From assembly GCA_023230525.1 (NCBI GenBank), contig JALNXE010000002.1, positions 8,159 to 72,158 of the forward strand: DNA of 64,000 nt, read 5' to 3'. This document shows, piece by piece, positions 31,122 through 63,116 of the stretch. Under the pieces are notes generated by a model. The model had not been told where the DNA came from. It saw only the letters and a program-made list of their open reading frames with translations, and made no database searches. How positions within the stretch are numbered: position 1 is the first letter of the stretch; every line of letters begins with the position of its first letter. The translations under genes and the position numbers were made by a program. The stretch is from Desulfobulbaceae bacterium. GTDB taxonomy: Bacteria; Desulfobacterota; Desulfobulbia; Desulfobulbales; SURF-16.

Positions 31122-31148
31122 CTGCACCTTGTTCATGGACGTCGGGCA
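31122..31148 (+). repeat. 27-nt direct repeat, copy 2
   Basis: CTGCACCTTGTTCATGGACGTCGGGCA, located 67 nt upstream of the flgE ATG. Confidence 0.7.
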
Positions 31149-31214
31149 AACGCTAGAGCACGCATTGCCGGGATGAGTTTTGCGGCAATGCGGCGAAGGG
31201 AAGAGGAGAAAAAC

Positions 31215-33995
31215 ATGGGTATTTCGAGTTCTTTATATTCCAGCATCAGCGGCCTGAACACCCTGGGCAATGCCATGAGTGTGTTGAGCGACAACGTGGC
31301 CAACGTCAACACCGTGGCCTTCAAGTCGAGCCGGTCCACCTTTCAGGACGTGCTGTCCCAGGCCGTTTCCACGGCGGCGGGCAGTGCGCAGGTGGGCCGC
31401 GGGGTTACCCTGAGCACGGTGGACGGTCTGTTTGCCCAGGGGGCATTCGAGTCCACCTCCACGGCCACCGATCTTGCCATCGGCGGCCAGGGGTTTTTCA
31501 TGCTGCGTTCGGAAAACAGCGCCCAGGCGGACATGTATACCAGGGCCGGGGAATTCCGTTTCGACCAGGAGGGCAATCTGGTCAGTCCGGCCGGCTACTT
31601 TGTCCAGGGCTGGTCCATTGATTCGGCCACCGGCCAGGTGCAGGGCACCATCGGCGACATCACCATCGGCACCTCAACCCCGCCGGTGGAAACGGATCTG
31701 ATGGAGGTGATCGTCAACCTGGATTCCACGGTGGATAACGAAACAGTCAGTGTTCCCCTCTATGAGGCTTGGAACGGCACCAATGCCGCGGCGGTCAACC
31801 CCTCCGACCCCATCGACGCCAACAACTACGAGTATACCTCCTCCATGACCGTCTACGACTCCAAGGGGGCCAGCCACGATGTCACCATCTACTTTGACCG
31901 GACCGCCAACAACAACGAGTGGGAATTCCTGGTGAGCTGCGATCCGGCCGAGGATCTCCGGCTGCTCGAAGGCGACGAGCTGACGACCTATGCCCCGAAC
32001 ACCACCTATAACTATGAGGAGAATGCCGGGGCCGGGGCCTTGCTGTACGGCATCATCAATTTCAACACCTCGGGCGACATCACCAATATCGCCGCGTGGG
32101 ATGTGCCGCCGGACGGCGAGGTTGATCCGGCCCTCGCTGAAAACCGCATCAATCTCGAACCGGGTGACAGCTATTACAGTTTTGACTGCAACTTCACCGG
32201 GGCCTCAACCAACCAGAGTGTTGAACTGAACTTCGGCGCCGCCTTCAGCGGCCTGGTGACCAGCCAGACCCAGGTCCTGGTCAGCAACAGCGGGGCCTTC
32301 AGTAATGTGGACCTGACCGATAGCGTTACCAGCGCGACCGTCTGGGACAGCGTCTATGACGGGGTCGGCAATGTGATGAGTGACGGGGATGTCTTTACCT
32401 TCAGCGGGTTCGCCAATGACGGCACCGCTGTTTCCGGCCAGTATGTGGTGGGCGCCGCGGACAAGGTGCAGGATCTGCTGGACGCCCTGAGCGCCACCTT
32501 CGGCGCCACGGCAGGCATTGATGCGGCAGGACGCCTGAAGCTCACCGATAACACCGGCGGGGACAGCAGCCTGGCCATCAGCGGCTTTGTCACCTCCTCG
32601 CTCACCGGGGCCGATCCTTTCGGCGGGGGCGGCCTGGTGGAGGATCAATGGGCGGTGTCGGCAGGCCCGGCCAGCGCCGACGGCGGCGCCACGGTGATCA
32701 GCGACCCGGCCAGCCTGCTGACCACCATCGGCGGCGGCACCGGTACGGTAACAACGGGCGACGTCTTCACCTTCAGCGGCACGGCCGTGGACAGCAGCGA
32801 TGTGACCCTGGCGGGCAACAATATCTTCACCGTGGGGGCAACCAGCACCATCCAGGAGCTGCTTGATTTCATGTCCGCCCTGTATGAGGACGGTAATTCC
32901 GCCGGCCCAGCCACCGGCCTGCTCACCGCGGAGCTTGATGACGCAGGTTTCCTGCGGCTTTTTGACAACACCGCCTCCGGCAATCTGGATGTGGTCATGG
33001 GCTTTTCCGATGCGGACGCCAGCGGCTTTGCTGATCCCTTCGGCGGCTCCTTTGCCATGCAGGACGCCATATCCGGCCAGATCAACATCACCACCTCCAA
33101 GACCGAGGTGATTTCTCCGGGCCGGGCCTTGAGCACGGCAACCGGCACCCCGCCGGCGATCAGCGCCGAAACCGCCTGGACCAGTGTCTACAGCGATGAA
33201 ACACCGGGCACCGCGGCGAGCGGCGTGATCAGTTTTTCCGGCACCCGGGGCGACGGCACGGCTGTTACCTTATCCTATGATATTGATGCGGCCAAAGGTG
33301 CGGGGGAGACGGTGCAGGATCTGCTTGCTCAGCTGGAAGAGGCGTTTGGCGCCGATGCCGGCATTGACGAGGCGGGCCGCCTGGTGCTGCGGGACCGGCT
33401 TGCCGACACGGCCACGGAAACCAGCGGACTGGCCCTGACCGTCACCGGCTACGGCACCGGTCCGGAGATCTTCGGCCCGGCCGGGGACGCCTTTGAGACG
33501 GTGAACGGCGATCTGCTGGCCGACGGCAGCCGGGAAGGGGATGTGGTCAGTTCCCTGTTTGAGTCCGAGGCCCTGGCCTCCACCCAGTATGCCAACAGCT
33601 CCACCACGGTCTTCCAGGACCAGGACGGTTTTGCCTCGGGCTTCCTGCAGTCAGTCTCGGTGGATACCGCCGGGGTGATAACCGGCCACTATTCCAACGG
33701 CCAGGTGCTGGGCAAGGCCCAGGTGGCCCTGGCCAATTTCAATAACCTCAACGGGCTCTACAAGGAGGGGGGCAATGTCTTCAAGGAAACCACGGAATCA
33801 GGCGCACCCATCACCGGGGTGCCGGGCAGCAACGGCCTGGGCTCCATCTCCTCCAATTCCCTGGAGCAGTCCAATGTGGAGCTCAGCGCCGAGTTTGTCA
33901 AGCTGATCACCACCCAGCGCGGCTTTCAGGCCAGCTCGAAGATCATCACCACGGCGGATGAGATGCTGCAGGATCTCATCAATATCAAGAGGTGA
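31215..33995 (+). CDS. flgE: Flagellar hook protein, giant form (~926 aa) with three tandem inserted modules
   Basis: Start chosen at 'MGISSSLYSSISGLNTLGNAMSVLSDNVANVNTVAFKSSR' (GGAGAAAAAC upstream). C-terminus 'LEQSNVELSAEFVKLITTQRGFQASSKIITTADEMLQDLINIKR'. Normal FlgE is roughly 400 aa. Confidence 0.9.
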   Translation: MGISSSLYSSISGLNTLGNAMSVLSDNVANVNTVAFKSSRSTFQDVLSQAVSTAAGSAQVGRGVTLSTVDGLFAQGAFESTSTATDLAIGGQGFFMLRSENSAQADMYTRAGEFRFDQEGNLVSPAGYFVQGWSIDSATGQVQGTIGDITIGTSTPPVETDLMEVIVNLDSTVDNETVSVPLYEAWNGTNAAAVNPSDPIDANNYEYTSSMTVYDSKGASHDVTIYFDRTANNNEWEFLVSCDPAEDLRLLEGDELTTYAPNTTYNYEENAGAGALLYGIINFNTSGDITNIAAWDVPPDGEVDPALAENRINLEPGDSYYSFDCNFTGASTNQSVELNFGAAFSGLVTSQTQVLVSNSGAFSNVDLTDSVTSATVWDSVYDGVGNVMSDGDVFTFSGFANDGTAVSGQYVVGAADKVQDLLDALSATFGATAGIDAAGRLKLTDNTGGDSSLAISGFVTSSLTGADPFGGGGLVEDQWAVSAGPASADGGATVISDPASLLTTIGGGTGTVTTGDVFTFSGTAVDSSDVTLAGNNIFTVGATSTIQELLDFMSALYEDGNSAGPATGLLTAELDDAGFLRLFDNTASGNLDVVMGFSDADASGFADPFGGSFAMQDAISGQINITTSKTEVISPGRALSTATGTPPAISAETAWTSVYSDETPGTAASGVISFSGTRGDGTAVTLSYDIDAAKGAGETVQDLLAQLEEAFGADAGIDEAGRLVLRDRLADTATETSGLALTVTGYGTGPEIFGPAGDAFETVNGDLLADGSREGDVVSSLFESEALASTQYANSSTTVFQDQDGFASGFLQSVSVDTAGVITGHYSNGQVLGKAQVALANFNNLNGLYKEGGNVFKETTESGAPITGVPGSNGLGSISSNSLEQSNVELSAEFVKLITTQRGFQASSKIITTADEMLQDLINIKR

Positions 33996-42174: not shown

Positions 42175-43557
42175 TCAGTCGGAGGAGCCGGTGATGGCGG
42201 CAAAGGTCTGGGTGAGATAGTCGGACATGCTGGTCATCTCGCTCAGGTAGGAGTCCAGTTCGACGTACTGTTTGGTCAGTATCTCGTATTTTTTATCCAG
42301 CCGCTCCGTGTCCTTTTCGATCTGCTCTTCCAGGCTGTCAATGCGCTGCTGCACCAGCGAGGTTTCCGAGGCATAGATACCGCTGTCCTCGGTGGCGGCA
42401 TTGCGCAGGAAATCGCTCACCTTGTCGGCAAAGCCTGTGATGTCCGAGTCGTCGTCGCCGTTGAAGAAGGCGGCGAGATCAGCAAAGTTTTCTTCCAGCA
42501 TGGTGGTCAGGGTGTCATCATCGATGGTGATGGTCCCGTCCGATTCATAGGAGAGCCCCAAGTCGAAAATGGAGGTCACCGGGCTGTCCGAGCCGGCCTG
42601 GATAAAGGTGTTCATCAGGTTTTGCATGCTGGAGGGCAGATCGTCAAAACCGGTGGAGGCGAGAATGCCGAGTTCCTCGGTGTCGGTGTCATAACCGCTG
42701 TTTGCTGAAATTTCCGTGAGGATGTCATTATAGGCGGTCACCAGATTGGTGATTAACTCCTTGATCTTCTCCTCATCGTTGCTGACCGAAATGGTGCTGG
42801 CGCCGGTACCCTGCAGGGTGAACTGCACGGAGGGGATGATGTCCGTGATGGTGTTGCTTTGGCGCTGGTAGTCGATGCCGTCCACGGAAAATCGGGCATT
42901 GAGGCTGGCACCGTCCGCACCCGTCTTTTCCGTCAGGGCCAGCGCGGAAAGCTGGGTGAGCAGTGAGATCCTGTTGTCCTCGCCGGTCTCATCGGCCTGC
43001 AGGACCAGCTGGTAGGGATTGTCCGCATCGCCGTTGTTGACCAGGCTTGCGGTGACGCCGGGGTTGCTTGCGTCGTTGTTGATCAGCTCGGCCAACTCCA
43101 TAAGGGTGGTGCCGCCGGCCACCGCAAGCGTCACCGTGGTCTCGCCCAGCTGGTAGGAGAAGGTGGTGCTCTCGTCGCTTTCGGCATCATACACCACGGT
43201 GGTCTGGCCGGCCACGCCGTCCGCGATCCACGAACTCCTGGCGGCCAGGGCCGTTACGGTAACCTGCGTGTCCTGCACCGCTGCCCCGTCGCTTGTGGCC
43301 AGGGTCAGCACGCTTGCATCGGACACCGTGGCGTCGCGGGAAATAAAGGTGCTTTCCAGGGAGAGTTCCAGGGCATATCCTTTCATGTCGAGCAGTTTGC
43401 CCTGAACCACGGTGAATTCGCTGAGCTGGGTTTCATAGGCGCTGACCTTAGCTTCCTTGGCGGTAATGACCTCCTGATCGATCTCCCGCAGCGAATCAAG
43501 GGTGCCCTGCAGATCAATACTGGAACCAAGTCCCAGCGATGAAATTGTTCCTGACAT
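42175..43557 (-). CDS. fliD: Flagellar filament capping protein
   Basis: 460-aa ORF. N-terminus 'MSGTISSLGLGSSIDLQGTLDSL...'. C-terminal coiled region 'LVQQRIDSLEEQIEKDTERLDKKYEILTKQYVELDSYLSEM'. Confidence 0.85.
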   Translation of the reverse strand: MSGTISSLGLGSSIDLQGTLDSLREIDQEVITAKEAKVSAYETQLSEFTVVQGKLLDMKGYALELSLESTFISRDATVSDASVLTLATSDGAAVQDTQVTVTALAARSSWIADGVAGQTTVVYDAESDESTTFSYQLGETTVTLAVAGGTTLMELAELINNDASNPGVTASLVNNGDADNPYQLVLQADETGEDNRISLLTQLSALALTEKTGADGASLNARFSVDGIDYQRQSNTITDIIPSVQFTLQGTGASTISVSNDEEKIKELITNLVTAYNDILTEISANSGYDTDTEELGILASTGFDDLPSSMQNLMNTFIQAGSDSPVTSIFDLGLSYESDGTITIDDDTLTTMLEENFADLAAFFNGDDDSDITGFADKVSDFLRNAATEDSGIYASETSLVQQRIDSLEEQIEKDTERLDKKYEILTKQYVELDSYLSEMTSMSDYLTQTFAAITGSSD

Positions 43558-46931: not shown

Positions 46932-47401
46932 GGCCAGCATCTTACACCCGAAATGATCAGCGAGGTAATGGGTATTCCGAAACGCCCTGAAATATCTCAT
47001 TTTACTGAGGCATGTTAGAATTTGCTGTTAAGAATTGTAAAGTTTGTTTTCCGGCCGAGGTGCGACTTTGGCGTAACTTATGGGGGTAATAGGCTGATTT
47101 TTCAGGTGTTTCTTTGTGGCCTATTTGGCGATTTGCAACCGAGGTAAATTTTTTTACAGATAAAGGCCGGGGAATACCATGCCTCATTTTTGCCGGATGG
47201 TAGCCCAAGGCAGGATAATCAGAGGTTTTTAACATTGCTGGCAGCGGGAAAAACTATCTGGCAGGGAAATTGCTGTAAGTTTGCAGGATTATGCGGTATG
47301 ACATGAGGCAGGAGAGGTTAAAAAAAACAGGGTGGAGTAATGGTTGCAAGGGTTGCGGCAGACTCCGCGATTTTTATGGAACACAGCAAAGGAGGAGAGC
47401 A

Positions 47402-49198
47402 GTGAGAAAAATATTGTCAAAGTGTCTTATGGGGGCGACAGTCTTCGGGGTGGTGGCAATCCAGGGAACCTGCAGCGCGGCAAATCAGGCCGCCGCCGGG
47501 GACACGTTCAGGACGGGAGAGATCGTCATGGCCGGCACGGCAGCGCAGGTGCCGGGCGGCTATAAAATCAAAAAGGTGCTGCCCAATGCCGGGCTCGTTG
47601 TGCTTGAGGTGGCAAAAGGGCAGGAGGCGCGGCATGTCTCCTTATTGCAAGGCAAGGGGAAAAAATGCGGCTTGAACCTGAAATATCAGGCTTTTTCCAC
47701 CCCGGATGATACGTATTACGGCAGCCAGTGGAATATGCGCATGGTGCAGAGCGAACAGGCCTGGGATATCAGCACCGGGAGAAACGCCACCGTGGCCATT
47801 CTTGACACGGGCCTGAAAACGGCCGGGGCTGAAGATGGCATTGGCTGTACGGAGATCCTGCCGGGCAGCGATATCGTCAACAGTGACAGTGACCCGGAGG
47901 ACGGCGCCGGCCACGGCACCCATGTGGCCGGCACCGTGGCCCAGACAACGGACAACGGCATCGGGGTGGCCGGGCTGGCCTATGGGGCCTGTGTCATGCC
48001 GGTCAAGGTGCTCGATGACAGCGGCGCAGGCACCTCGGCGGATATTGCCGAGGGCGTGGCCTTTGCCGTGGCCAAGGGGGCCTCGGTCATCAACATGAGC
48101 CTGGGCTGGAGCGCCAAGTCGCGGGTCACCACGGATCCGGTCCTTGATCCGGCCCTGGCCGCCGCCCATGCCGACGGGGTCACCATTGTCTGCGCTGCCG
48201 GCAATGAAGGCTGGAGCAAAAATGTGAGTTATCCGGCCATTTCTCCCTACACCATCGCCGTAGGGGCGGTTGATATCAACGGCACGGTGGCCTCCTATTC
48301 CAACGGCGGCACCGGCCTTGACCTGGTGGCCCCGGGGGGAGGGAACACGGTTGCCGGAGACGGGATCCTGCAGGAAACCTTTGATGACAGCGGCTGGAAC
48401 TACTTCTTTTACAGCGGCACCTCCATGGCCACCCCCCATGTCGCTGCGGCCGCGGCCATGCTCTATGCCAAAGATCCCTCCATCACCCCTGAAGAAGTGC
48501 TCGCCGCGCTTACCGCTACCGCCAAGGATCTCGGCTCCGCCGGCTATGACAGTGCTTACGGTCATGGCCTGCTGCAGGTCTATGATGCGCTTAACGCTGT
48601 CGGGGAGTGTCTTGATGCCGACGGAGATACCTGGACCACCTGCAGCGGGGACTGCAATGATGGCAGCAGCGCCGTTTTTCCGGGTGCCGAAGAGGCATGC
48701 GGCGACGGGATCGACAACAACTGCAACGGCGTCATTGACGAAGGCTGCGAGGTATGTACTGATAATGACGTAGACGGCCTGACCACCTGCGACGGGGACT
48801 GTGATGACCACAACAGCTCTGTCTATCTTGGTGCCCCGGAACTCTGCGGCGACGGGATCGACAACAATTGCGACGGCGTCATTGACGAAGGCTGCGAGGT
48901 ATGTACTGATAATGACGTAGACGGCCTGACCACCTGTGACGGGGACTGTGATGACCGCAACAGCTCTGTCTATCTTGGTGCCCCGGAACTATGCGGCGAC
49001 GGGCTCGACAACAACTGCGACGGCGTTATTGACGAAGGCTGCGAGGCCTGCACCGACAATGACGGGGATACCTGGACCAGTTGTGAAGGTGATTGTGACG
49101 ACGACAACTACTATATCAATCCCGGCCGGCCGGATAGCTCGGGACGCTGGAGCAGGGATGGCGTTGACAACGACTGCGACGGTTTGATCGATAAGTAA
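47402..49198 (+). CDS. Secreted subtilisin-family serine protease (S8) with four C-terminal Cys-rich repeats
   Basis: GTG start preceded by AGGAGG (track ORF begins at 47291). Signal peptide 'LMGATVFGVVAIQGTCSA'. Catalytic triad regions 'AILDTG', 'HGTHVAG' and 'GTSMATPHV'. Confidence 0.85.
   Translation: MRKILSKCLMGATVFGVVAIQGTCSAANQAAAGDTFRTGEIVMAGTAAQVPGGYKIKKVLPNAGLVVLEVAKGQEARHVSLLQGKGKKCGLNLKYQAFSTPDDTYYGSQWNMRMVQSEQAWDISTGRNATVAILDTGLKTAGAEDGIGCTEILPGSDIVNSDSDPEDGAGHGTHVAGTVAQTTDNGIGVAGLAYGACVMPVKVLDDSGAGTSADIAEGVAFAVAKGASVINMSLGWSAKSRVTTDPVLDPALAAAHADGVTIVCAAGNEGWSKNVSYPAISPYTIAVGAVDINGTVASYSNGGTGLDLVAPGGGNTVAGDGILQETFDDSGWNYFFYSGTSMATPHVAAAAAMLYAKDPSITPEEVLAALTATAKDLGSAGYDSAYGHGLLQVYDALNAVGECLDADGDTWTTCSGDCNDGSSAVFPGAEEACGDGIDNNCNGVIDEGCEVCTDNDVDGLTTCDGDCDDHNSSVYLGAPELCGDGIDNNCDGVIDEGCEVCTDNDVDGLTTCDGDCDDRNSSVYLGAPELCGDGLDNNCDGVIDEGCEACTDNDGDTWTSCEGDCDDDNYYINPGRPDSSGRWSRDGVDNDCDGLIDK
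48740..49033 (+). repeat. Two near-identical 147-bp tandem repeats inside the S8 protease gene
   Basis: Units 48740-48886 and 48887-49033 differ at only a handful of positions. Each encodes 'CTDNDVDGLTTCDGDCDD(H/R)NSSVYLGAPELCGDG(I/L)DNNCDGVIDEGCE(V/A)'. Confidence 0.85.
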
Positions 49199-49495: not shown

Positions 49496-52249
49496 ATGCA
49501 GAACAATCGGAATGCTCTTGCCTCTTATGTATTTCTCGTCATCGGCGGCCTTATTTTCGGGGCAGTTGCCGGGGACTCCTCCGGACCGGTTTTCGGTGCG
49601 TTTCTCGGCTATCTGCTGGCCGACAACATGTGGCTCAAAAGACGGCTGGATGGGCTGGAACGGAGATCCGTTTTCCCCCGGGCAGACAAAATAGCCGCCG
49701 CCGTGGCAGACCAGCCGGCCGCGGGCGATGATTTTGATAATGCAGCTATTGCAACAACTTCCGCTGCGGCAGAGACCGCGTCCCTGGCCACGGAGGACTC
49801 TCGGGTCAGGGACGCGGTTGCCCGCCCTTCCTTTACCAGTCCTTCGGAAATCTGGAAAACCGGAGAGCAGCAGGTTCCGCAGGCTGCCCCTGCAAAAACA
49901 GGCGGGGGTGAGGAAATTTTTTACAGAATTTTCGTTGCCGCCAAAAACTTTTTCACCACCGGCAATATCATTCTCAAGATCGGTTTGATCGTGCTTTTCT
50001 TCGGAGTTTCCTTCCTGTTGAAATATGCGGCCCAGAGAAATTTTGTGCCCATCGAGCTGCGCCTGACCGCGGTCTGTCTGGGAGGGCTTGCCATGCTGGC
50101 CATCGGCTGGCGTCTCCGCCTGCAACGGCAGTTTTACGGACTCCTGCTGCAGGGCGGCGGGGTCGGCATCCTCTATCTCACGGTGTTTGCCGCCGCCAAG
50201 CTCTATCACCTGCTCCCTTTTGTCTTGGCCTTTGGCGTCATGCTGGGCATCGTCCTGCTGGCCGGCGCCCTGGCCGTGCTGCAGGATGAAAAATGGCTGG
50301 CCATGGCCGGCTCAACCGGCGGATTTCTCGCCCCGGTTCTGCTTTCCACCGGCAGCGGCAGTCATGTGGCTCTCTTTTCCTATTACCTGCTCCTCAACCT
50401 GGGCATTCTCGGCATCGCCTGGTTCAAGACCTGGCGTCTGCTCAACCTGCTCGGCTTTGTTTTCACCTATGTCATCAGCGCCATGTGGGGCCTGAAATTT
50501 TATCAACCCGCCTATTTCGCTTCAGTGGAACCCTTTCTGCTTGTCTCCTTTCTGCTCTATGCCGGGGTATCGATTCTTTTTGCCCTGAAACAGCCGGTGG
50601 AGCTCAAAGGTTATATCGACCCGCCTCTGGTCTTCGGTCTGCCCATCATCACCTTTGCCATGCAATACGGCCTGGTGCATGATACGGAATTTGGTCTGGC
50701 GCTCAGCGCCGTGGGGTTCGGCATCTTTTACCTGCTTTGCGCCCTGCTGCTCTGGCGCCGCCATCAGGCCATGGGCATGCTGGTGGAGATCTATCTCTCC
50801 TTTGGCGTGGTCTTCGGCAGTCTGGCGATTCCCCTGGCCCTGGACGGCTACTGGATCACCGCGGCCTGGGCGCTGGAGGGCGCCGCCCTGATCTGGGTGG
50901 GCGTCCGCCAGAGCCGGATCAGGGCCAGAGTTTTCGGCATCCTGCTGCAGGTTGGCGCAGGCCTCAGTTTTCTTGAAGCCCTCAACGGCCAGGCGGGAAC
51001 CCTGCCGGGGTTAAACGGCATTTTCCTGAGCAGCCTGTTGCTTGCCATGGCCGGTCTTTTTTCCTCTTATTATCTGGACACCAAGGGGGAGAATATCCGG
51101 TCCTGGGAGAGGCAGCTGGTCATTCCCCTGCTGCTCTGGGGTTTATGCTGGTGGTTCGGCGGAGGAACCAGGGAAATCGATCATTTTGCCCGGTCAGCCG
51201 ACAAGATGCACATTTTTCTGCTGTTTATCTGCGCCAGCTCTCTGCTGATGGGTTTTACCGCCCGCAAACTGGCCTGGCGCCTGCTGGCTTATCCTCCCGT
51301 AGCTCTGCTGCCGCTGCTGGCCGTTCTCAGTTTTAATTCCCCTTTTGGGGAGGTCATCCTCCCCCATCTCTTTGCCGGCTGGGGTGCCCTGGCCTGGACG
51401 GTTGCCCTGGCCGGACAATATATCCTGCTGCGCATTTCGGAAAACAAATGGCCGCTGAAGGTGGTGAATTTTTACCACCAGCTCTCCTTTTGGCTCATCC
51501 TTTATATCCTGAGCGCGGAGAGCGCCTGGTTCATCGGGCAAACCCTGGGCGGCAGAGTCTGGTCCTTTCTCTGCTGGGGGGTGGTGCCGGCCGCCGGCAT
51601 CTTGCTGCTGGGAGGGGTGGGAAGAAAACTTGCCTGGCCGGTCCGCCGTTTCGAGCAAGCATACCTGGTTACCGGTTCCGCCGTTGTGGTCGCCTATCTC
51701 TGCTGCTGGTGCCTGGCCAGCCTGCTGCAATCCGGTGATCCGGCTCCGCTTCCCTTTCTGCCGCTGATCAACCCCCTGGAGGTCTTTCAGGTTGTCGTGC
51801 TGCTGGTCAGTCTGCAATGGGCCGTGCAGCATCGCCTCTGGCTGGCGGATCAGCTGCGCGGCAGGATAAGCCAGCCCATCCTGTATGTCGCCGGAGCCAT
51901 CATTTTTCTCTGGCTTAATGCGGCGGTGGCGCGCACGGTTCATTTTTTTGCGGGGGTTCCCTATCTGGCGGTTAATCTTTTTCATTCCACCGTTTTTCAG
52001 GCCGCGATCTCCATTCTCTGGGGCCTATCCGCTCTTTCCATCATGGTTTTGTCCACCAGAAAAATGAACCGGCATATCTGGATGCTGGGAGGCGGGCTGC
52101 TGGGACTGGTGGTTGTAAAGCTTTTCCTGGTCGATCTTTCCGGCACCGGCACCATCGGCAGAATCGTCTCATTTCTGGTGGTTGGCCTGCTGATGCTGCT
52201 GATCGGCTATTTTTCTCCCCTGCCGCCGAAACAGGAGCAGAGCGCATGA
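49496..52249 (+). CDS. Large polytopic membrane protein (DUF2339-like)
   Basis: 917-aa ORF. Short soluble N-terminal region followed by more than 20 hydrophobic segments. Family label is from memory of the DUF2339/DUF3999 gene pair and is unverified. Confidence 0.75.
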   Translation: MQNNRNALASYVFLVIGGLIFGAVAGDSSGPVFGAFLGYLLADNMWLKRRLDGLERRSVFPRADKIAAAVADQPAAGDDFDNAAIATTSAAAETASLATEDSRVRDAVARPSFTSPSEIWKTGEQQVPQAAPAKTGGGEEIFYRIFVAAKNFFTTGNIILKIGLIVLFFGVSFLLKYAAQRNFVPIELRLTAVCLGGLAMLAIGWRLRLQRQFYGLLLQGGGVGILYLTVFAAAKLYHLLPFVLAFGVMLGIVLLAGALAVLQDEKWLAMAGSTGGFLAPVLLSTGSGSHVALFSYYLLLNLGILGIAWFKTWRLLNLLGFVFTYVISAMWGLKFYQPAYFASVEPFLLVSFLLYAGVSILFALKQPVELKGYIDPPLVFGLPIITFAMQYGLVHDTEFGLALSAVGFGIFYLLCALLLWRRHQAMGMLVEIYLSFGVVFGSLAIPLALDGYWITAAWALEGAALIWVGVRQSRIRARVFGILLQVGAGLSFLEALNGQAGTLPGLNGIFLSSLLLAMAGLFSSYYLDTKGENIRSWERQLVIPLLLWGLCWWFGGGTREIDHFARSADKMHIFLLFICASSLLMGFTARKLAWRLLAYPPVALLPLLAVLSFNSPFGEVILPHLFAGWGALAWTVALAGQYILLRISENKWPLKVVNFYHQLSFWLILYILSAESAWFIGQTLGGRVWSFLCWGVVPAAGILLLGGVGRKLAWPVRRFEQAYLVTGSAVVVAYLCCWCLASLLQSGDPAPLPFLPLINPLEVFQVVVLLVSLQWAVQHRLWLADQLRGRISQPILYVAGAIIFLWLNAAVARTVHFFAGVPYLAVNLFHSTVFQAAISILWGLSALSIMVLSTRKMNRHIWMLGGGLLGLVVVKLFLVDLSGTGTIGRIVSFLVVGLLMLLIGYFSPLPPKQEQSA

Positions 52250-53674
52250 AGATATCAGTGGTGCTGGTTGCCTTGCTGTTACTGGGGCAGACCGCCGGAG
52301 CCGGAACATGGACCAGGGAGGATTTTGCCCAGGGCTTTGATCTGGAATTCCGGCCCACCGGAGCGGTCCACAGTCTGCTGTTGCCGGAGAAGATCTATAC
52401 CACCGTCGTCCATCCGGATCTTGCCGATCTCCGGGTCTTTAACGGCGCAGGCAACGCCGTTCCCCACCTGCTCAGAATTGAACAGCAGGAGCCGCCGCAG
52501 ATCGTCCGGCAAGACGATGTGCCTTTTTCCCTCTCTCTATGATCCGCTGCCGGGCGATACGGTGCGCCAGATCGAAACCAGGATTGCCAGAGGCGCAGAA
52601 GGAGCAGGCAAAGCGCCTGTCGCCATCACGCAGTCGATTCGGGACAAAAAGGAGGTAACGCGGCAGCTGAGCGGTTATCTGCTTGATATGTCAGCCATCA
52701 CCACCACCCCTTTCCGTCTGCAGTTGACCATCAGCGGTGCGAGCGATTTCCTGACCACCGTGACGCTGGAGGGCAGCGACGATCTCACCGGTTGGTCTTA
52801 TATCAATCGGGAGACTCTGGCGCGGCTCAACTTCCACGGACATCTGATTGAAAAAAATGCAGACAGCCTCATCCAGCGGGGGAAAAGGTATATCAGGCTC
52901 AGTTGGCCGGCTGGGGAGCAAAACCTGATCATTGACAGAATCCGGGCCGTATCATACAGCAGTGTCCAGCCGCCGGTCCGCAACTGGACCGCACTGCAGC
53001 CGGCTTTGCCCGAAAAACAACCGGCTGCCGACAGGATTGTGCTGGAATACGACAGCAAAGGTTTCCTGCCGGTGGACACCATCCGGGTTGGCTTGGCCGG
53101 GGGCAATAACCTGATCCAGGGGGTGATAAAATCCCGCCCTGACCGCGAGGCAACCTGGCGCTTCAGAGGGCAGGGGACCTTTTATCGCCTGCAGCAGGAA
53201 GGGGTGGCCCTGGGCAATGATACCATCTCCGTGCCGATGACCACCGACCGCTACTGGCAACTGGAGATTGCGGCAGAGGGAGGCGCGTTTCCCAGGGATT
53301 TGCTGCCTCAGCTCAAGTTGGGCTGGCGTCCCCACACACTCTATTTCCTTGACCAGGGCGAGGGGCCCTACATTCTTGCCTTTGGCAATGGGCGCATGGG
53401 ATCGGCCAGTGGAAGTCCGGAAAACGGACTGAAAGACCTGCTGCAAGACATCGCCCAGCAAAAGACAATCATCCAGACGGCCCTGATCGGCAAAGAAATT
53501 GCGCTGGGCGGCCCGCAGATGCTTATTGCTCTTCCCCCGCCGCCACCCTGGAGAAAATGGCTTCTTTGGGGGGTACTGATCAGCGGGGTGATGCTGATCG
53601 GCGGCATGGCCTACAGTCTTTATTGCCAGATGCGCTCCGCCAGGGTCTCCGACAAAGCGGACAAGGGGGCCTGA
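52246..53674 (+). pseudogene. DUF3999-like exported protein, reading frame interrupted (frameshift near 52524-52540)
   Basis: The signal-peptide ORF (52246-52542, 'MKISVVLVALLLLGQTAGAG') stops at a T5/CT-rich tract. The body continues in the next frame (track ORF 52268-53674) to a C-terminal TM segment. The ATGA overlap with the upstream gene supports 52246 as the true start. Confidence 0.6.
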
Positions 53675-53749: not shown

Positions 53750-54061
53750 CTACTTCCTGATGCCCATTTTCCCCATGATCTCTTCCACCTCGCCTGCGCC
53801 GTGGTCGTAAAAGCCCTGCTCATCCGGGGCCAGATGGTGGAGCAGCCTGAGGAATTCGCCGGCGTGTTCCCGCTCCTCATCGGCGATGTCCTTGAGCACC
53901 GCTTTGGCCAGGGCGTTGTCCGTGCTTTCGGCAAGCTGCATATAAAGCTGGATGGCCTCGTACTCGGCGGCCACCATGAAACGGATGGAGCGGATAAGCT
54001 CCTCATCAGTGAGTTTGCGGCCATGGGCAAGGCCTGAAAAGGGATTTCCGAATTCTGGCAT
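53750..54061 (-). CDS. Small ferritin-like di-iron protein of the encapsulated-ferritin (EncFtn/Flp) type
   Basis: 103-aa ORF. 'AAEYEAIQLY...DEEREHAGEF' gives Glu/Tyr/Glu/His spacing (E, +7 Y, +30 E, +33 H) equal to the EncFtn ferroxidase ligands as I recall them. C-terminus 'GKMGIRK'. Confidence 0.7.
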   Translation of the reverse strand: MPEFGNPFSGLAHGRKLTDEELIRSIRFMVAAEYEAIQLYMQLAESTDNALAKAVLKDIADEEREHAGEFLRLLHHLAPDEQGFYDHGAGEVEEIMGKMGIRK

Positions 54062-56867: not shown

Positions 56868-58703
56868 ATGCAAAAAGTGTCTGCCAGTGTTTCTGCGGAA
56901 AAACCGGTCAACGGGCCTCAGCTCGCCAAAGAGTTACGCATTCAGTCGGAAAAATGCATTGAGTGCAAACTGTGCCGCAAGGAATGCGGGTTTTTGCGGA
57001 AGTACGGCTCTCCCAAACATATTGCCGATACCTATGATCCCGCCTCGACCCAAGGCTGGCTGATGGCCTTTGAGTGCAGCCTCTGCCAGCTCTGCGCCGC
57101 GGTCTGTCCGGTCAAGATCAATCCGGCCGCCATGTTCCTGGAAATGCGCCGTGAGGCCGTGAGCCGCGGGGGCCAGGATTTCACCGATTATGGCAGAATT
57201 CTGGGCTATGAAAAAAAGGGTACCTCCAGGCGTTATTCCTACTACGGCCTGCCGGCAAACTGTGACACCGTCCTGTTTCCCGGCTGCACCTTGCCCGGCA
57301 CCAGACCGGACAAGGTCAAGGCCCTTTTTGATCATCTGCGCCAGACCATTCCCGGCCTCGGCATAGTGCTCGACTGCTGCACCAAACCCTCCCATGACCT
57401 GGGCCGCGACAAATATTTCCAGGCCATGTTCAGTGAGATGCGGGAGTATCTCCTGCGGCACGGGGTGAAAAACGTGCTGGTGGCCTGCCCCAACTGCTAC
57501 CGGGTGTTTAAACAGTATGGCGGCAGCCTGCAGGTGCAAACCGTGTACGAACATCTGGCGGCAACCTCCTTGCCCCAGACGGCAAACATTGCGGGCACGG
57601 TTACCATCCATGACCCCTGCGGCACCAGAAATGAGGAGCAGATCCACGCGGTCATCCGCCGGCTGGCCGGCGAGAAATCACTGACCATCCAGGAGATGAA
57701 ACACCATGGCGCAAGAACCATCTGCTGCGGCGAGGGCGGGTCGGTGGGCTGCGTCAATCCCGATTTTTCCAAGGGCTGGGGCGCGCGGCGCCGAGACGAA
57801 GCGGGCGGGGTCAGGATTCTCACCTATTGCGCGGGCTGCGCCAATTTCTTAGGCTCGCTCAATCCCACCAGCCATATCCTGGATTTACTCTTTGAGCCTG
57901 CGGCGACGCTGGCAGGCACGGTGAAAATTTCCAAGGCCCCCTGGACCTACCTCAACCGTCTGCGGCTTAAAAGTCATTTTAAAAGGCACATCACGGCCGC
58001 GGCGTCCCGGGAAAGGACGTTCAGCGGCGAGGAACGGGCCAGGGGCGGCATGGTCAAACGTCTGGTCATTCTGCTGGCCCTGGTCGGGGTGATCGCAGCT
58101 GTCCGCCTGAGCGGTGCCACCCAATATCTGGAGCAGGAGAAACTGCGCGCCCTGATCGCCGGTTACGGCACCTTGGCGCCCGTCATCTATATGCTGACCT
58201 ATGCCCTGGCGCCCGCGCTGTTTCTGCCCGGCCTGCCGCTGACCATCGCCGGCGGCATCCTGTTCGGCCCGTTCTGGGGGGTGGTCTACACCATTTGCAG
58301 CTCCACCGTGGGGGCCTGCGCGGCCTTTCTGGTTTCCCGCTATATCGGGCGGGAGTGGATCGCGGCCAAGCTCAGCAGCCCCCGCTGGAAGAAGCTTGAC
58401 GAGATGGTGGAAACCCATGGCTGGAAAGCGGTGGCCTTTACCCGGCTGATCCCGCTGTTTCCCTTTAATCTCCTTAATTATGCCTTTGGCCTCACCAGGG
58501 TGAAATTCCTCCATTACGCCCTGGCTACCTTTATCTGCATGCTGCCGGCCTGCATCGCCTATATCGTTTTTTCCAGTTCGCTGCTGAGTGTCCTAAAAGG
58601 GCAGATTACCCCCGAGTTTTTGATCGGCATGGCCCTGATCATCACGGTGTCGCTCCTGCCCGTGGTTTACCGGAAAATCAAGGCACGCAGTGAGAAAAAG
58701 TAA
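56868..58703 (+). CDS. Fusion: HdrD/GlpC-like Fe-S oxidoreductase (2x[4Fe-4S] + 2 CCG domains) + TVP38/TMEM64 (DedA-superfamily) membrane domain
   Basis: 611-aa ORF. 'CIECKLCRKEC' and 'CSLCQLCAAVCP'. CCG-type motifs 'LDCCTKPSHD...ACPNC' and 'TICCGEGGS...YCAGC'. C-terminal 'FLPGLPLTIAGGILFGPFWG...FLVSRYIGR...RLIPLFPFNLLNYAFG'. Confidence 0.8.
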   Translation: MQKVSASVSAEKPVNGPQLAKELRIQSEKCIECKLCRKECGFLRKYGSPKHIADTYDPASTQGWLMAFECSLCQLCAAVCPVKINPAAMFLEMRREAVSRGGQDFTDYGRILGYEKKGTSRRYSYYGLPANCDTVLFPGCTLPGTRPDKVKALFDHLRQTIPGLGIVLDCCTKPSHDLGRDKYFQAMFSEMREYLLRHGVKNVLVACPNCYRVFKQYGGSLQVQTVYEHLAATSLPQTANIAGTVTIHDPCGTRNEEQIHAVIRRLAGEKSLTIQEMKHHGARTICCGEGGSVGCVNPDFSKGWGARRRDEAGGVRILTYCAGCANFLGSLNPTSHILDLLFEPAATLAGTVKISKAPWTYLNRLRLKSHFKRHITAAASRERTFSGEERARGGMVKRLVILLALVGVIAAVRLSGATQYLEQEKLRALIAGYGTLAPVIYMLTYALAPALFLPGLPLTIAGGILFGPFWGVVYTICSSTVGACAAFLVSRYIGREWIAAKLSSPRWKKLDEMVETHGWKAVAFTRLIPLFPFNLLNYAFGLTRVKFLHYALATFICMLPACIAYIVFSSSLLSVLKGQITPEFLIGMALIITVSLLPVVYRKIKARSEKK

Positions 58704-58735
58704 TCGCACAATGATCATCCGGGAATATCAATGGT

Positions 58736-59386
58736 ATGAATGGTAACGCCACAGCGGCAACAGCCGGCTACAACTTTAAAAAATCTCTCATTATCAAAGC
58801 CGTGATCGTGGTCTCCCTCACCATGCTTGCCGCCACGGTCTTTTATCTCATCCGCCGCTATTTTTATATCCTTGACGCCTATGTCTATACCGGCGAGTTT
58901 CATCTGCTTTTCATCACGAAAAACATGCAGATGACGAAACTTGAGCTATTTACCGAATACCTGAAACCCATGGGTTTCCTCATGGCCCTGCCTGTCTGTC
59001 TGACCGGGACCTGCTATGCCGGCCTGGACCCGTCATCCTCCCAGCAGGTGCTGATCCGGGCAACCGCTGATGCCTTTGGCGCGCCCATGAGTTTTCTTTT
59101 CGGATTCCTCGGCTTTTTTGTCCTGGGGCTGCTTGCCTTTGGCCTCGGCTCCCTGATCTTCGGGGATATCGTGCCGCTGGTAACCAAAAAATGCTACCCG
59201 GAGTATCTGGACAAACTGAAGAAACCCGCTTTGCTGCTTTTTCCCATGGCCTTTGCCCTGCCCTTTGTGCCGATCATCATAGCTTCCGTAATGGCCGCCA
59301 TTGTCAAGGTCCCTTTTGCGAGGCTGCTGCAATACATGCTGGCCGGTTTCATGCTGCGCACCCTTGCCCTGGTGCTGCTGCAGTGA
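58736..59386 (+). CDS. Hypothetical polytopic membrane protein
   Basis: 216-aa ORF with 4-5 hydrophobic segments, 'LPVCLTGTCYAG' and 'VPFARLLQYMLAGFMLR'. Start uncertain (internal ATGs). No family recognised. Confidence 0.5.
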   Translation: MNGNATAATAGYNFKKSLIIKAVIVVSLTMLAATVFYLIRRYFYILDAYVYTGEFHLLFITKNMQMTKLELFTEYLKPMGFLMALPVCLTGTCYAGLDPSSSQQVLIRATADAFGAPMSFLFGFLGFFVLGLLAFGLGSLIFGDIVPLVTKKCYPEYLDKLKKPALLLFPMAFALPFVPIIIASVMAAIVKVPFARLLQYMLAGFMLRTLALVLLQ

Positions 59387-59437
59387 AAAAAGAGAGAGGA
59401 CGGGCAAGGGGCTTTTCAATCAAACAAGGAGAACAAG

Positions 59438-60310
59438 ATGAAAATAAATCAAGAAGGTAAATGCTCCTGCTGCACCGGGGGCTCCCGATCGGTGCTGCTC
59501 GGCAGGGCCGCTGATGCAGGTCACGAGACGGGCCATACCGGCGGCATGACCAGGGGAGAATTTCTCAAGGTGGTTGGCCTCGGCATCCTGGGCCTCAGCA
59601 CCATACCCGGCACCAAGGCCTATGCCGCGGCGGAGAAGGACGGCAATATCAAGATGGTCCAGGGGAAAAACGACCGCATGGTGGTTGACCTGGAAAACCG
59701 GGAAATCCGGGTTTCCACGGACATCACCAAGGACCCGTCCAAACCATCGGTCATTGACTGGGGCCGGAGATTCCAGGCCTTTTTCGGTACGTATGGCGGC
59801 AAGATGGAAAAATTTTTCGTGTTCACCACCGATGTTTCCCGCACGGATATCGATAAGGCCATCCAGGAAATCGGCATCAAGTCCCGCCGCCAGATTCCCA
59901 TGGAGGAGGTGGAGCAGCGCAAAGGGCTGAAGGCCACCACCACCATGGCTGATTATCTGGACGGCGATCCGGTCATTGTCATCGTGCGGTTCATCAAGGA
60001 CGGCAAAATCGTTGAAACGGCCCTGGAAGATCTGATCGAGGAAAAAATCATGGTCGATGGCGCCGAGGTGGTAAAGCCCTATACCCCGCACTGGGTTTAC
60101 CACGGCACCGGCGAGGCGATCACCTTTCCCTCCGGCTGCTGCGTCTGCCCCTCCGACTGCAACGGCGGCATTATCACCGATAACGTCCTGCCGCTGAAAA
60201 CCACGGAAAACTACTACCGTATCAACTGGGAGCGGATGCCGCCCGTCGGTTCCAAGGCGGAAATCATCATCAAATCCATTTACAGCTCGGCCAGGCACGC
60301 AACCATCTGA
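59438..60310 (+). CDS. Cys-rich exported protein of unknown function (Tat-like signal with single Arg)
   Basis: 290-aa ORF with a strong AAGGAGAA RBS. N-terminal 'KCSCCTGG...HETGHTGG', then 'TRGEFLKVVGLGILGLSTIPGTKAYA'. C-terminal 'PSGCCVCPSDCNGG'. Confidence 0.6.
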   Translation: MKINQEGKCSCCTGGSRSVLLGRAADAGHETGHTGGMTRGEFLKVVGLGILGLSTIPGTKAYAAAEKDGNIKMVQGKNDRMVVDLENREIRVSTDITKDPSKPSVIDWGRRFQAFFGTYGGKMEKFFVFTTDVSRTDIDKAIQEIGIKSRRQIPMEEVEQRKGLKATTTMADYLDGDPVIVIVRFIKDGKIVETALEDLIEEKIMVDGAEVVKPYTPHWVYHGTGEAITFPSGCCVCPSDCNGGIITDNVLPLKTTENYYRINWERMPPVGSKAEIIIKSIYSSARHATI

Positions 60311-60409
60311 TGCCTGCCGGATAAGGCCGGTCAAACGCTGCAAGGAGAGGGGGGCGGTGCATCGCCCTTCCTCTCTATTGCCGTCAACCTCTTTTAAGCC
60401 ATCATCGCC

Positions 60410-61048
60410 ATGCAGGGAACAACCTATTCCGACAGTCTCGGAGACATCCGGAGCATTGCCTCGCGCCTGACCGCTGTTGAACAGCTGGTCAGGGACAGCG
60501 TCATGGCGCAGATCATCGACCGCGGCGGCCCGGTGACCGCCCGCGGCCTGAAACAGGTGGCGGCCCTGCGCAACCTGGATGTGGAGGAGCAGCTTGCCGC
60601 CCTGCTCAAAAAACGGACCATTGTGGTGAACCCGGAGGGATACATCACCTTTTCCTATCCGGTTTCAGCCCTGCCCACCAGTCACCGGGTGACGCTCGCG
60701 GACGGCAGATCGTTTTATGCCATGTGCGCGGTGGACGCCCTGGGGGCCGCCTTCACCTTCAACCAGGATATCAGGGTGGACTCCCAGTGCAGCCACTGCC
60801 GGCAGCCGGTGCATCTGGAAATAGGCAATCAGCGGATTATCGATCTGCAGCCCGCCGCAACCCAGGTGCTCCACGTCGATCTGAACCGGTATGACAACTG
60901 GTCGGGCAACTGCTGAAACATCATGAACTTCTTCTGTAGGAAGAAACATTATGAACAGTGGCTGGCACAGAGGCAGGTCACGCTAAAGCATTTCTGTCTG
61001 ACCGCGGCACAGGCGCTGCAGGTGGCGCAGATGCTGTTTGCCCGGTAG
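60410..61048 (+). CDS. MerB-like (alkylmercury lyase family) protein with in-frame UGA (60914-60916), probable selenocysteine
   Basis: The track ORF ends at TGA 60916, but the frame stays open to TAG 61046-61048. 'YAMCAVDALG' parallels MerB 'YAWCALDTL'. Read-through 'GNC-U-NIMNFFC...YEQWLAQ' parallels MerB '[11 protein letters not shown]...AEDWASK'. Confidence 0.7.
60922..60953 (+). promoter_or_regulatory. SECIS-like hairpin downstream of the in-frame UGA
   Basis: Lower stem CAUG/UAUG, internal loop, upper stem UUCUUC/GAAGAA, apical loop UGUAG. The apex is about 21 nt from the UGA. Confidence 0.5.
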
Positions 61049-61104: not shown

Positions 61105-62301
61105 TTAGCCTGTCTCCTTGGTATTGCCGGAAAAGGCGGAGATGAAGCGATCCATGGCGGCAAAGAGCAGCTCGACACTGTAGCCGGCAATAAAGGCGAT
61201 GGCGAACTGCGATAAGGAGGCAAAGGGCAGCTGGCTGTCGCCTTCCTTGATGAACCAGACGATGGCCAGGCCGGACAAGGCGCCCAGGTTCATCCTCAGC
61301 CGTAAACAGATATCCGATTCCGGGGTATAGGTGAGGCTTCTGATCTGCACGGCCAGGGTGCGCAGCACATAAGTAATGGCGCCCAGCAGTCCATAGAGGA
61401 TGGGCAGCAGATAAATCTGCAGGGCATAGATGGCGAACTGGGAAGTTTTCAGGGACTTCAGCAGCCGCTGGTAGGGATCGGCATCAGCTTCCCCGTCTTT
61501 GGCGCTCCCTTTCGGAGAGCTGCCCATGATGCGGCCGAGAAACTGGAGCGGCCGCCGCCAGTACTCATTCCAGTTGTTGAGGATCTCGAAATTGAGCTCG
61601 GTTGACTGCTCGTAATTATCCAGGCGGGCGTCAATGATGCTGATTTCGTTTTGTTTTTTGGCGAGTTCGGCCTCCAGCTGTCCATCACCTCCGGCATTGT
61701 CCGCCGCCGGGGCGCTGCTCTTTTCCCGGTGTTCCTTCAGCCGTTCCTCGATGGTTTTCGCTTCCCGCTGCAGAAGTTCCTTCCGGCTTTTATCCGTGTC
61801 CACCTGCTTGAGGGTGGCAGTGACATCGTCGGTAACCGAAGAGCCCACCACCCAGTAGGTTTGCACCACGAGCAAAAAGATAAGGGTGCCCAGGGCCCAA
61901 AACCGGAAGCGGCGCACCGACAGGGTGGCCAGGGAGACGCGCCGGGGGGATCGCAGAATTTTGCTTCTGAAATGGCCGGTCAGCGAGGTGTCGTCCTGTT
62001 TGTCGTAACTGGCGCGCAGACTGGCTACGGTAACCGGGCTCACCGCCTTGGCCAGGGCCTCAGAGGCCTGCAGAAAGAGGGTTTCCATCTCCACCGGGTC
62101 AGGCGCTGGCTGGCCGCTGCCAGAGGAGTGTCTCAGCCGGATGATGTTTTCGATGGTTTCCCTGGGCAGGGTGATCCCTGTTTCCGAGGCGTAGGACAGC
62201 AGAAGCTCGGCGTTGCGGAGCTGTTCGGTGTTGATCCGGCTGGGGCTGCCTTCCTGTGCCGCGTTAACGTCTGCCATGGATTTTCCTTTTTGGGCCATCA
62301 C
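61105..62301 (-). CDS. Hypothetical membrane protein with central coiled-coil region
   Basis: 398-aa ORF. A TM segment near residue 150, then the charged coiled stretch 'KSRKELLQREAKTIEERLKEHREK...LEAELAKKQNEISIIDARL', then 3 C-terminal TM segments. 4-nt overlap with the upstream gene. Confidence 0.6.
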   Translation of the reverse strand: MMAQKGKSMADVNAAQEGSPSRINTEQLRNAELLLSYASETGITLPRETIENIIRLRHSSGSGQPAPDPVEMETLFLQASEALAKAVSPVTVASLRASYDKQDDTSLTGHFRSKILRSPRRVSLATLSVRRFRFWALGTLIFLLVVQTYWVVGSSVTDDVTATLKQVDTDKSRKELLQREAKTIEERLKEHREKSSAPAADNAGGDGQLEAELAKKQNEISIIDARLDNYEQSTELNFEILNNWNEYWRRPLQFLGRIMGSSPKGSAKDGEADADPYQRLLKSLKTSQFAIYALQIYLLPILYGLLGAITYVLRTLAVQIRSLTYTPESDICLRLRMNLGALSGLAIVWFIKEGDSQLPFASLSQFAIAFIAGYSVELLFAAMDRFISAFSGNTKETG

Positions 62302-62837
62302 CTGACGGAGATGGCATATTCGCAGGCCTTGTCACCCTCGCAGAGCACAGCGGTGCCATCGGCATAGACCACCTTGACCACCCATTTGCCCTGCCGGATA
62401 TGATCCTTCATGCTCCAGGTGCGCCAGTCAAAGAAGCCGCGGCTGGAGATTTCCGTTTGCAGCTGGCCGGCCAGGGCAGGGTCACCGGCGGAGATCATGA
62501 TGTTGTCAATCATGGTGGTGACGCCTTCTGCCGAGACGCCGATGATGGAATGGCGGAACCACTGGTGGTAAATGGGAAGTTTGCCGGCTTCCTGCAGCCG
62601 CTGCAAAGCCCAGTTCGATCCCTTGACCTTCATCCACAGATAGAGGGGGCCGACCGGGGCGGTGTTGTCGTATATCGCTCCATGATCCCTTTCATCGATA
62701 CCGCTGGTCCATACCGCCTGCTCCACCGTAAGGCGGGCCTCCTCGGCCAGGGAGTTGAGGGAATAAAGTATAGCCAACATATTGAGACAAAAGGTGAAAA
62801 GCAGAATAAGGCAGGGCTGGCGATGGCTGCGGGACAT
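62298..62837 (-). CDS. Hypothetical exported protein (DUF2914-like by recollection)
   Basis: Start at 'MSRSHRQPCLILLFTFCLNMLAILYS' (AAGGAGAAAAAA RBS; track ORF extends to 62882). Ends 'GKWVVKVVYADGTAVLCEGDKACEYAISVR'. Confidence 0.6.
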   Translation of the reverse strand: MSRSHRQPCLILLFTFCLNMLAILYSLNSLAEEARLTVEQAVWTSGIDERDHGAIYDNTAPVGPLYLWMKVKGSNWALQRLQEAGKLPIYHQWFRHSIIGVSAEGVTTMIDNIMISAGDPALAGQLQTEISSRGFFDWRTWSMKDHIRQGKWVVKVVYADGTAVLCEGDKACEYAISVR

Positions 62838-63116
62838 TTTTTTCTCCTTGATCCTGTTGTCACACGGAGTGGGCAGAAGCATGGCCCGCGGCCCGGCAGG
62901 GGACGGGCGATTGCCCTGCTGCGGGGCGGACGTGTAAAATCAGGCTGTTATCCCCTTATTAATATGCGGGATGGAAGAATGTCAAGGCGAACGTCAGGCT
63001 GGGGTGACAAAACGGAAAAAACCGGGGGCTGCCCCGACCGGCATGGCACGGGTAAGTAAAAGGAGGCCGTGATAAGGTTTATGGCGAAGAAAATTATTAT
63101 TTAATATAATAACAAT

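Follow-up and report, generated by a model that had tools for sequence, protein, structure and literature searches.

The closest described relatives of the gene examined here are the SaoL proteins, a branch of MerB-like proteins in which every member stops at an aligned Cys with UGA as the next codon, after which the reading frame resumes for ~50 residues (Haft & Gwadz 2022, bioRxiv 10.1101/2022.07.06.499078). SaoL stands for 'selenocysteine-assisted organometallic lyase'. The family is modelled as NF040728, includes C. difficile WP_238476746.1, and was proposed in the same preprint as the marker of a nine-gene 'SAO' locus. We analysed a 64-kb stretch of contig JALNXE010000002.1 from a Desulfobulbaceae bacterium (the window), in which a related gene lies at positions 60410-61048. 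With a probability of about 0.87, this interval is a single gene, saoL, which encodes a 212-residue MerB-fold enzyme in which UGA 60914-60916 is decoded as selenocysteine (Sec) 169, in the context of a four-gene cassette.

The central selenoprotein claim, which a first-pass annotation had proposed from the raw sequence, is a correct rediscovery of this known family (NF040728), described in 2022. A tool-free reading of raw sequence can thus recover a real selenoprotein. Prokaryotic selenoproteome reviews from 2022 and 2026 both list SaoL, with the motif CU and one Sec. The selenocysteine insertion sequence (SECIS) check by Haft & Gwadz was manual, and prediction servers failed for them (bioRxiv 10.1101/2022.07.06.499078). 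The covariation and codon statistics presented here therefore add some support to the published assignment. The alternative cassette around the gene, and a second MerB-like gene on the same contig with two in-frame TGA codons, are more novel than the saoL selenoprotein itself.

saoL and its in-frame UGA

An ATG at 60410 starts a 168-codon open reading frame (ORF) on the + strand that is closed by TGA 60914-60916. Beyond this TGA the same frame remains open for 43 sense codons, up to TAG 61046-61048. The features of the gene are as follows.

60410..61048, + strand: full-length coding sequence of saoL, the predicted MerB-like organometallic lyase selenoprotein; 212 codons including Sec169, then TAG
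60725..60736, + strand: codons Cys106-Ala-Val-Asp109, which correspond to the metal ligand Cys96 and the proton donor Asp99 of MerB
60911..60916, + strand: TGC-TGA, the Cys168-Sec169 ('CU') dipeptide, with TGA 60914-60916 as the proposed selenocysteine codon
60917..61045, + strand: C-terminal tail of 43 codons (NIMNFFCRKKHYEQW...AQMLFAR), which completes the MerB fold according to profile match and conservation
60921..60954, + strand: SECIS-like stem-loop, with lower stem 60921-26/60949-54, upper stem 60929-35/60939-45 and loop GUA 60936-38

Translation gives a product that reads ...YAMC(106)AVD(109)ALG...NWSGNC(168)-UGA-NIMNFFCRKKHYEQWLAQRQ...AQMLFAR. This bears out the 168-residue ORF and the 43-codon extension to TAG at the coordinates given by the first-pass annotation, and both motifs that it had picked out, 'YAMCAVDALG' and 'WSGNC-UGA-NIMNFFCRKKHYEQW', are found in the product.

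The gene had been called a MerB-like lyase, and profile searches agree. Written with C in place of U, the 212-residue product has a match to Pfam MerB (PF03243) with E = 3e-32 over residues 86-210; this match extends through the UGA and takes in profile positions 2-125 of 126. Split at the UGA, the 168-residue ORF by itself reaches profile positions 2-71 only (74.8 bits), and the 43-residue tail by itself matches positions 87-125 of 126 (E = 4e-5). Thus the tail supplies the C-terminal part of the MerB fold that the 168-residue ORF lacks. Furthermore, NF040728 ('MerB-like organometallic lyase SaoL') scores 181.2 bits against a cutoff of 140 and is covered from position 2 to 159 of 159. The curated MerB models are not passed (NF009710, 80 bits against 193; NF033555, 69 against 200), and an NCBIfam scan of 46 window ORFs returned no merR, merA, merT or merP.

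The active site was compared by alignment to PDB structures. Cys106 and Asp109 align with Cys96 and Asp99 in the 'YAWCALDTL' motif of MerB (1S6L/3F0P), and both residues are unchanged in 26 of 26 homologues aligned. Cys168-Sec169 align with MerB Cys159-Cys160. MerB2 (5C17) has one catalytic Cys, which falls on the Sec column, a position anchored on either side by a conserved Trp and a conserved Phe. The earlier proposal that the UGA lies within the active-site dithiol is thus upheld. It also follows that the UGA stands where homologues have Cys, as both MerB and MerB2 carry Cys at this column.

Database proteins are of limited help in deciding whether the UGA is decoded. Of 98 database homologues, the 95 close ones (E <= 1e-23) cover no more than 79% of the query and so have no tail; nearly all of them, with lengths of ~155-183 residues, stop at one and the same conserved Cys. 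Standard gene callers thus still cut SaoL short (95/95 of these homologues lack the tail, nearly all ending at the UGA). Since such truncated proteins are ambiguous by themselves, we examined the DNA of the loci. A one-genome-per-species scan returned 587 relatives, of which the best 80 loci were fetched. These loci (numbered L001 onwards) span at least five phyla and include complete isolate genomes. Represented are Desulfobacterota, Geobacter/Desulfuromonas types, Syntrophobacter, Peptococcaceae-type Firmicutes, Tissierella, C. difficile, Paraclostridium, Lachnospiraceae, Actinobacteria, Chloroflexia and a Cetobacterium plasmid.

TGA directly follows the Cys column in all 80 of these best loci, with no TAA or TAG at this position, compared to 379 TAA, 225 TGA and 198 TAG among the ordinary stops of their long ORFs. 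The post-TGA frame is open for 42-64 codons in every locus whose contig continues, and the second stops are mixed (TAA 42, TAG 23, TGA 11). Tail residues are strongly kept: N170 in 76/77 sequences, M172 in 77/77, N173 in 76/77, F175 in 77/77, W/Y184 in 77/77 and F211 in 66/77. Against three close relatives, the ratio of nonsynonymous to synonymous substitution rates (dN/dS) is 0.17-0.32 in the tail and 0.18-0.46 in the N-terminal part, which are indistinguishable, and nucleotide identity, 79-91% within the tail, is down to 19-34% immediately past the TAG. The first-pass annotation had named termination at this position without a conserved tail as a result that would count against it; the DNA shows the opposite, TGA in 80/80 loci followed by a conserved in-frame tail. 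UGA 60914-60916 almost certainly encodes selenocysteine.

Two features of the alignment around the UGA should also be noted. In L046, L049 and L067 the SaoL homologues have no Cys directly before the TGA, reading 'NWACGA-U' and 'NWACGT-U' (CxxU spacing) and 'DWATKT-U' (no nearby Cys), respectively, so the CU dipeptide is not universal in the SaoL family. In addition, the AUG of Met172 (ATC ATG at 60920-60925 in the window) is invariant in 78/78 sequences, where MerB and MerB2 have other residues; in many sequences this AUG pairs with a downstream CAU of the lower stem.

The stem-loop after the UGA was analysed separately. A hairpin with a 6-bp stem, a UGUAG loop and its apex ~21 nt from the UGA had been proposed; folding returns it as an alternative reading of the stem-loop listed above, with the apex 21 nt past the UGA. 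In a gap-free alignment of 78 sequences, the element 'UUCUUC-UGUAC-GAAGAA' is kept even at synonymous sites. The helix is 84% paired over 76 distinct sequences, compared to 53-69% for slid controls. Four helix pairs are changed on both sides, and there are 21 double-change cells, a number reached by 0 of 500 shuffles. When codons were redrawn from the usage of each locus with the peptide fixed, in 66 of 67 loci the native sequence gave a better fold than its synonymous recodings (mean z = -2.1). At the stem positions, codon usage is biased with p-values from 1e-7 to 1e-20; in AT-rich genomes, for instance, stem codons are UUC in 24/29 and 28/29 cases (expected 0.18), ACG in 16/16 (expected 0.06) and AAG in 16/18 (expected 0.28). 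These counts are phylogenetically non-independent, though they span several phyla. Across the 78 sequences, compensatory changes and a strong bias among synonymous codons thus show the SECIS-like hairpin of the first-pass annotation to be conserved.

Bacterial SECIS models have an apical loop with G(U) roughly 16-37 nt downstream of the UGA. In every sequence of our alignment the apical loop starts 18-22 nt past the UGA, and all but a few loops contain G-U, which fits this geometry. Rfam gave no match in the 64-kb window. In Lachnospiraceae-type loci (L053, L054, L057, L059-L061, L063, L066, L070, L075 and L080), a different peptide (NFFCSSAEF) is encoded by UUCUGCA-GUNN-UGCAGAA, which is shifted by 3 nt and still forms a 7-bp hairpin. 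In this group, the structure is retained while the sequence has been replaced.

Other readings of the UGA were weighed against the same data, and the two that survive best are both highly improbable. In the first, the TGA is a genuine stop, and the enzyme is split into a 168-residue product and the product of a separate 41-codon ORF (ATG 60923 to TAG 61048) made by termination-reinitiation. This would agree with the gene callers, which annotate 168-residue products plus a separate 41-residue ORF in L082-L084, and with the invariance of the AUG at codon 172 in 78 sequences. However, reinitiation needs no particular stop, yet TGA is used in 80/80 loci, no Shine-Dalgarno-like sequence precedes the AUG, and the two codons between TGA and AUG look coding (Asn170 in 76/77, with synonymous C/T variation). 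Both MerB and the SaoL homologues reported with a CC motif consist of a single chain, and under a split enzyme the conserved G-U-loop hairpin would be left without a role.

Equally remote is read-through that inserts Trp, Cys or Gly without selenium, by an alternative code or near-cognate suppression. TGA is the commonest terminator of long window ORFs (41/73), so the genome is not recoded, and ydjY, the gene upstream of saoL, stops at TGA without a conserved continuation, as expected under the standard code. The column is that of a catalytic Cys, a classic Cys/Sec position, and the conserved downstream hairpin points to SelB-dependent decoding. What speaks for such read-through is that some database entries of the two-TGA MerB-like family were translated with TGA = Trp, and that Cys misincorporation at Sec codons occurs in some selenoproteins. 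Lastly, a pseudogene, or an error of sequencing or assembly that turned a Cys codon (TGC/TGT) into TGA, would need one substitution in what is a metagenome assembly, but is effectively refuted by an identical protein on two independent assemblies, by TGA at the same column in 80 loci that include complete isolate genomes, and by a tail that has no frameshifts or extra stops and a dN/dS well below 1.

A gene cassette around saoL

saoL is the last gene of a same-strand cassette at 56868-61048, with intergenic gaps of 32, 51 and 99 nt. The three genes upstream of it are as follows.

56868..58703, + strand: HdrD/GlpC-like N-terminal part (2x[4Fe-4S] + CCG) fused to a C-terminal VTT/DedA domain, 611 residues; Pfam Fer4_8, Fer4_17, CCG and VTT_dom (E = 6e-29)
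58736..59386, + strand: membrane protein of the VTT/DedA family (YdjX/YdjZ-like), 216 residues; VTT_dom E = 6e-6, 27 bits, under the gathering score of 33.9
59438..60310, + strand: YdjY-domain protein directly upstream of saoL, 290 residues; NCBIfam NF040466 E = 3.5e-23, and PF27149 in the precomputed annotation

The Fe-S/CCG-DedA fusion is 50-86% identical among cassette loci and partly matches NF045663 'diclust_near_Sec' (226 bits, with the cutoff at 530). The second DedA protein is conserved in position, with 23-88% identity. An alignment of 11 cassette loci shows that YdjY has an N-terminal C-S/A-C-C motif (CSCC here) ahead of a Tat-like (twin-arginine translocation) '[TS]RxxFLK' hydrophobic signal or anchor, and that its mature domain carries an invariant 'FPSGC[CIV][VL]CPSDCNGG' cluster. 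A relative of YdjY was sought in the PDB and none was found. Sec was also considered for YdjY itself and rejected, as the stops are ordinary and the sequence past them is not conserved. Predicted terminators and promoters around the operon were no more numerous than in shuffled sequences.

The four genes are kept together in three flanking contexts (the window, L083 and L086), and the trio of Fe-S/DedA fusion, DedA protein and YdjY lies beside SaoL in about 10 further Desulfobacterota-type loci, with permuted gene order. We searched for eight SAO partner families (SaoA, SaoP, SaoB, SaoX, SaoE, SaoC, SaoT and SaoD) by tblastn, using as queries C. difficile proteins of which six were identified by NCBIfam and two, SaoD and SaoT, by position and motif. 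None was found in the 64-kb window or in cassette-type loci, whereas the same queries match ~38-55 other loci, and the complete set is present in ~55 of the loci. The canonical order, as seen in C. difficile (L044), is SaoE-SaoC-SaoX-SaoB-SaoP-SaoA-SaoL. The loci without SAO partners are L001, L005, L006, L008, L011, L021, L031, L049, L056 and L083-86, and the trio is present in all of them except the short contig L001, which has YdjY only.

The coupling of SaoL to DedA, YdjY and Fe-S proteins in the window and in about 10 loci elsewhere makes it less likely that SaoL depends on the SAO ABC (ATP-binding cassette) transporter. The SaoL paper (bioRxiv 10.1101/2022.07.06.499078) makes no mention of DedA, YdjY or Fe-S/CCG fusion families, and searches of the literature on YdjY function, and on DedA with selenium, found nothing specific. 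A DedA/YdjY/Fe-S cassette in place of the nine-gene SAO system therefore looks undescribed.

Several observations weigh against the reading of saoL as a selenoprotein gene within this cassette. None of the 46 window ORFs scanned with NCBIfam, drawn from 64 kb of a 126-kb metagenome contig, is selA, selB or selD, and ARAGORN found no tRNA gene, tRNA-Sec included, in the window. The window hairpin alone is marginal, both against dinucleotide shuffles (z = -1.54) and against synonymous recodings of the same peptide (z = -2.04, p = 0.043), so its significance comes from the comparative data and not from the window by itself. RNAalifold returned no consensus structure for the mixed 78-sequence alignment, probably because two hairpin registers coexist; following this result, explicit pair counts and per-sequence folding against synonymous recodings were used. 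No Cys-for-Sec SaoL homologue occurs among the 80 loci, and two such homologues, with a CC motif, are reported in the literature (Haft & Gwadz 2022, bioRxiv 10.1101/2022.07.06.499078). The SaoL papers and selenoproteome reviews consulted contain no direct protein evidence for any SaoL, this gene included. Cassette-type SaoL was considered as a distinct subfamily and rejected, as a rough neighbour-joining tree intersperses these sequences with those of SAO type; the association may have more than one origin, or the resolution of the tree may be poor. Finally, the lyase chemistry and the role of the cassette are what we infer from homology and gene order only.

A second MerB-like gene and other neighbours

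A second MerB-like gene (L081:17951-18661) lies on the same contig, ~7.5 kb downstream of saoL and ~4 kb beyond where the window ends. It has 236 codons, with in-frame TGA at both the MerB Cys96 and the MerB Cys159 columns. The first site reads 'KWYGQ-U-GIEVLAV', with Glu at the Asp99 column, and the second reads 'AWGSA-U-SRMNLFRSEEH'. Each TGA is followed by a hairpin, of which the second has a 7-bp stem and a GGUC loop. The protein scores under both the SaoL and the MerB cutoffs. Homologues of this second family have Cys codons at both sites (L088), TGT then TGA (L089 and L090) or TGA at both (L087). A two-TGA MerB-like gene with Cys-containing homologues and hairpins implies that the organism decodes Sec. 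Since SaoL is the only entry among MerB-like proteins in the 2026 selenoproteome review, the second gene may represent an uncatalogued selenoprotein family, with Sec at both catalytic positions.

Four JGI proteins of the second family (P0099, P0103, P0115 and P0121) have Trp at both catalytic columns. The DNA of P0099 (L087:39-746) has TGA at both, so an evident translation of TGA as Trp hides two candidate Sec codons. In L089:8001-9182 and L090:5336-6517 (assembly GCA_009772125.1), the second-family frame reads into an annotated adenylate/guanylate cyclase gene (PF00211), which makes a Sec-containing MerB-like sensor-cyclase fusion possible. Linkage of the two-Sec gene to the cassette was considered and rejected, as the two are not linked in the other loci fetched.

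Taken together, the claim that SaoL belongs here to an undescribed, ABC-transporter-independent four-gene module that replaces the SAO set, alongside an uncatalogued two-Sec MerB-like family, is tentative, and we place it somewhat short of an even chance. If true, it would provide a second architecture for selenium-assisted trafficking of organometals or organometalloids, and the first hint at what the uncharacterised ydjXYZ-type genes of E. coli do. The cassette is a testable functional lead for YdjX/Y/Z-type genes, and the SaoL substrate could be easier to find in a tractable organism that carries this smaller cassette.

Other genes in and near the window were noted, some of which recur beside the cassette elsewhere.

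47291-49198, + strand: subtilase (Peptidase_S8) with four MopE-type putative copper-binding repeats
53750-54061, - strand: rubrerythrin/encapsulated-ferritin-like ORF of 103 residues, upstream of the cassette and divergent
61105-62301 and 62298-62882, - strand: two genes without family match (398 and 194 residues) that converge on saoL
49496-53674, + strand: adjacent DUF2339 (membrane protein of 917 residues) and DUF3999 (468 residues) genes
11156-19131, + strand: type I restriction-modification system (HsdM, probable HsdS, HsdR), then RadC
25489-33995 and 42175-43557: flagellar hook/filament gene cluster
21054-23045: B12-binding radical SAM gene

A homologous subtilase/MopE architecture is present at L083:740-2392, a few kb upstream of the cassette. 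The rubrerythrin-like ORF recurs at L083:5752-6063, L084:3934-4245 and L085:3565-3876, where it directly adjoins the cassette; in the window a sulfatase-family gene separates the two. The pair of genes without family match is syntenic in L083 and L084, with a P-type cation ATPase inserted between the pair and saoL.

Proposed mechanism and comparison with known systems

The conservation of the stem-loop at 60921-60954 suggests that it would recruit SelB-GTP-Sec-tRNA(Sec) to a ribosome paused at the UGA, with the G-U-containing apical loop placed about 20 nt past that codon. The chain would then run on through the 43-residue tail, giving the last helices of the MerB fold and an active site predicted to consist of Cys106, Asp109 and the Cys168-Sec169 pair. 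By analogy with MerB, Cys106 and Sec169, and possibly Cys168, would ligate the soft metal or metalloid of an organometallic substrate, and Asp109 would then protonate the carbon, cleaving the carbon-metal bond. A softer selenolate of low pKa should raise affinity and speed ligand exchange. From its gene content, the cassette could take the place of the ABC importer and the efflux pump of SAO by providing capture, membrane passage and thiol/selenol reduction. More speculatively, YdjY might capture the substrate outside the cytoplasm, the DedA/VTT proteins might carry it across the membrane, and the HdrD-like CCG domain might keep the Cys/Sec sites reduced.

MerB (EC 4.99.1.2; plasmid R831b, PDB 1S6L/3F0P) and MerB2 (Bacillus megaterium, PDB 5C17) belong to the same fold family as the saoL product (PF03243), with matched catalytic Cys/Asp/Cys positions, and protonolysis of a carbon-metal bond is the likely chemistry common to MerB and the saoL product. 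The saoL product differs in having a predicted Sec in the active site and in scoring far under the curated MerB cutoffs, and its substrate need not be mercury. The 'CU'-motif selenoproteins HgcA, SaoB and SaoC resemble SaoL in that an adjacent Cys-Sec pair is proposed to bind a soft heavy-metal atom. However, their folds are unrelated to that of SaoL and they occupy other pathway positions; HgcA makes a carbon-mercury bond instead of cleaving one.

Published SaoL and the window gene share the curated family, the truncation artefact in databases, the conserved tail and the type of hairpin, and the C. difficile SaoL loci (L042-44) align with the window gene without gaps. They differ in gene context: published SaoL sits in the nine-gene SAO locus, with the SaoA/B/P/X ABC importer, the SaoE efflux pump, SaoC, SaoT and SaoD, whereas the window gene does not.

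For the cassette itself, the nearest comparison is with E. coli, whose gene order is ydjX-ydjY-ydjZ (DedA/TVP38-family, YdjY, DedA/TVP38-family). Both have an adjacent, same-strand trio of two VTT/DedA genes and ydjY. In contrast to the E. coli genes, the cassette has one DedA protein fused to an HdrD-like Fe-S/CCG part, extra Cys clusters in YdjY, and a predicted selenoprotein lyase attached.

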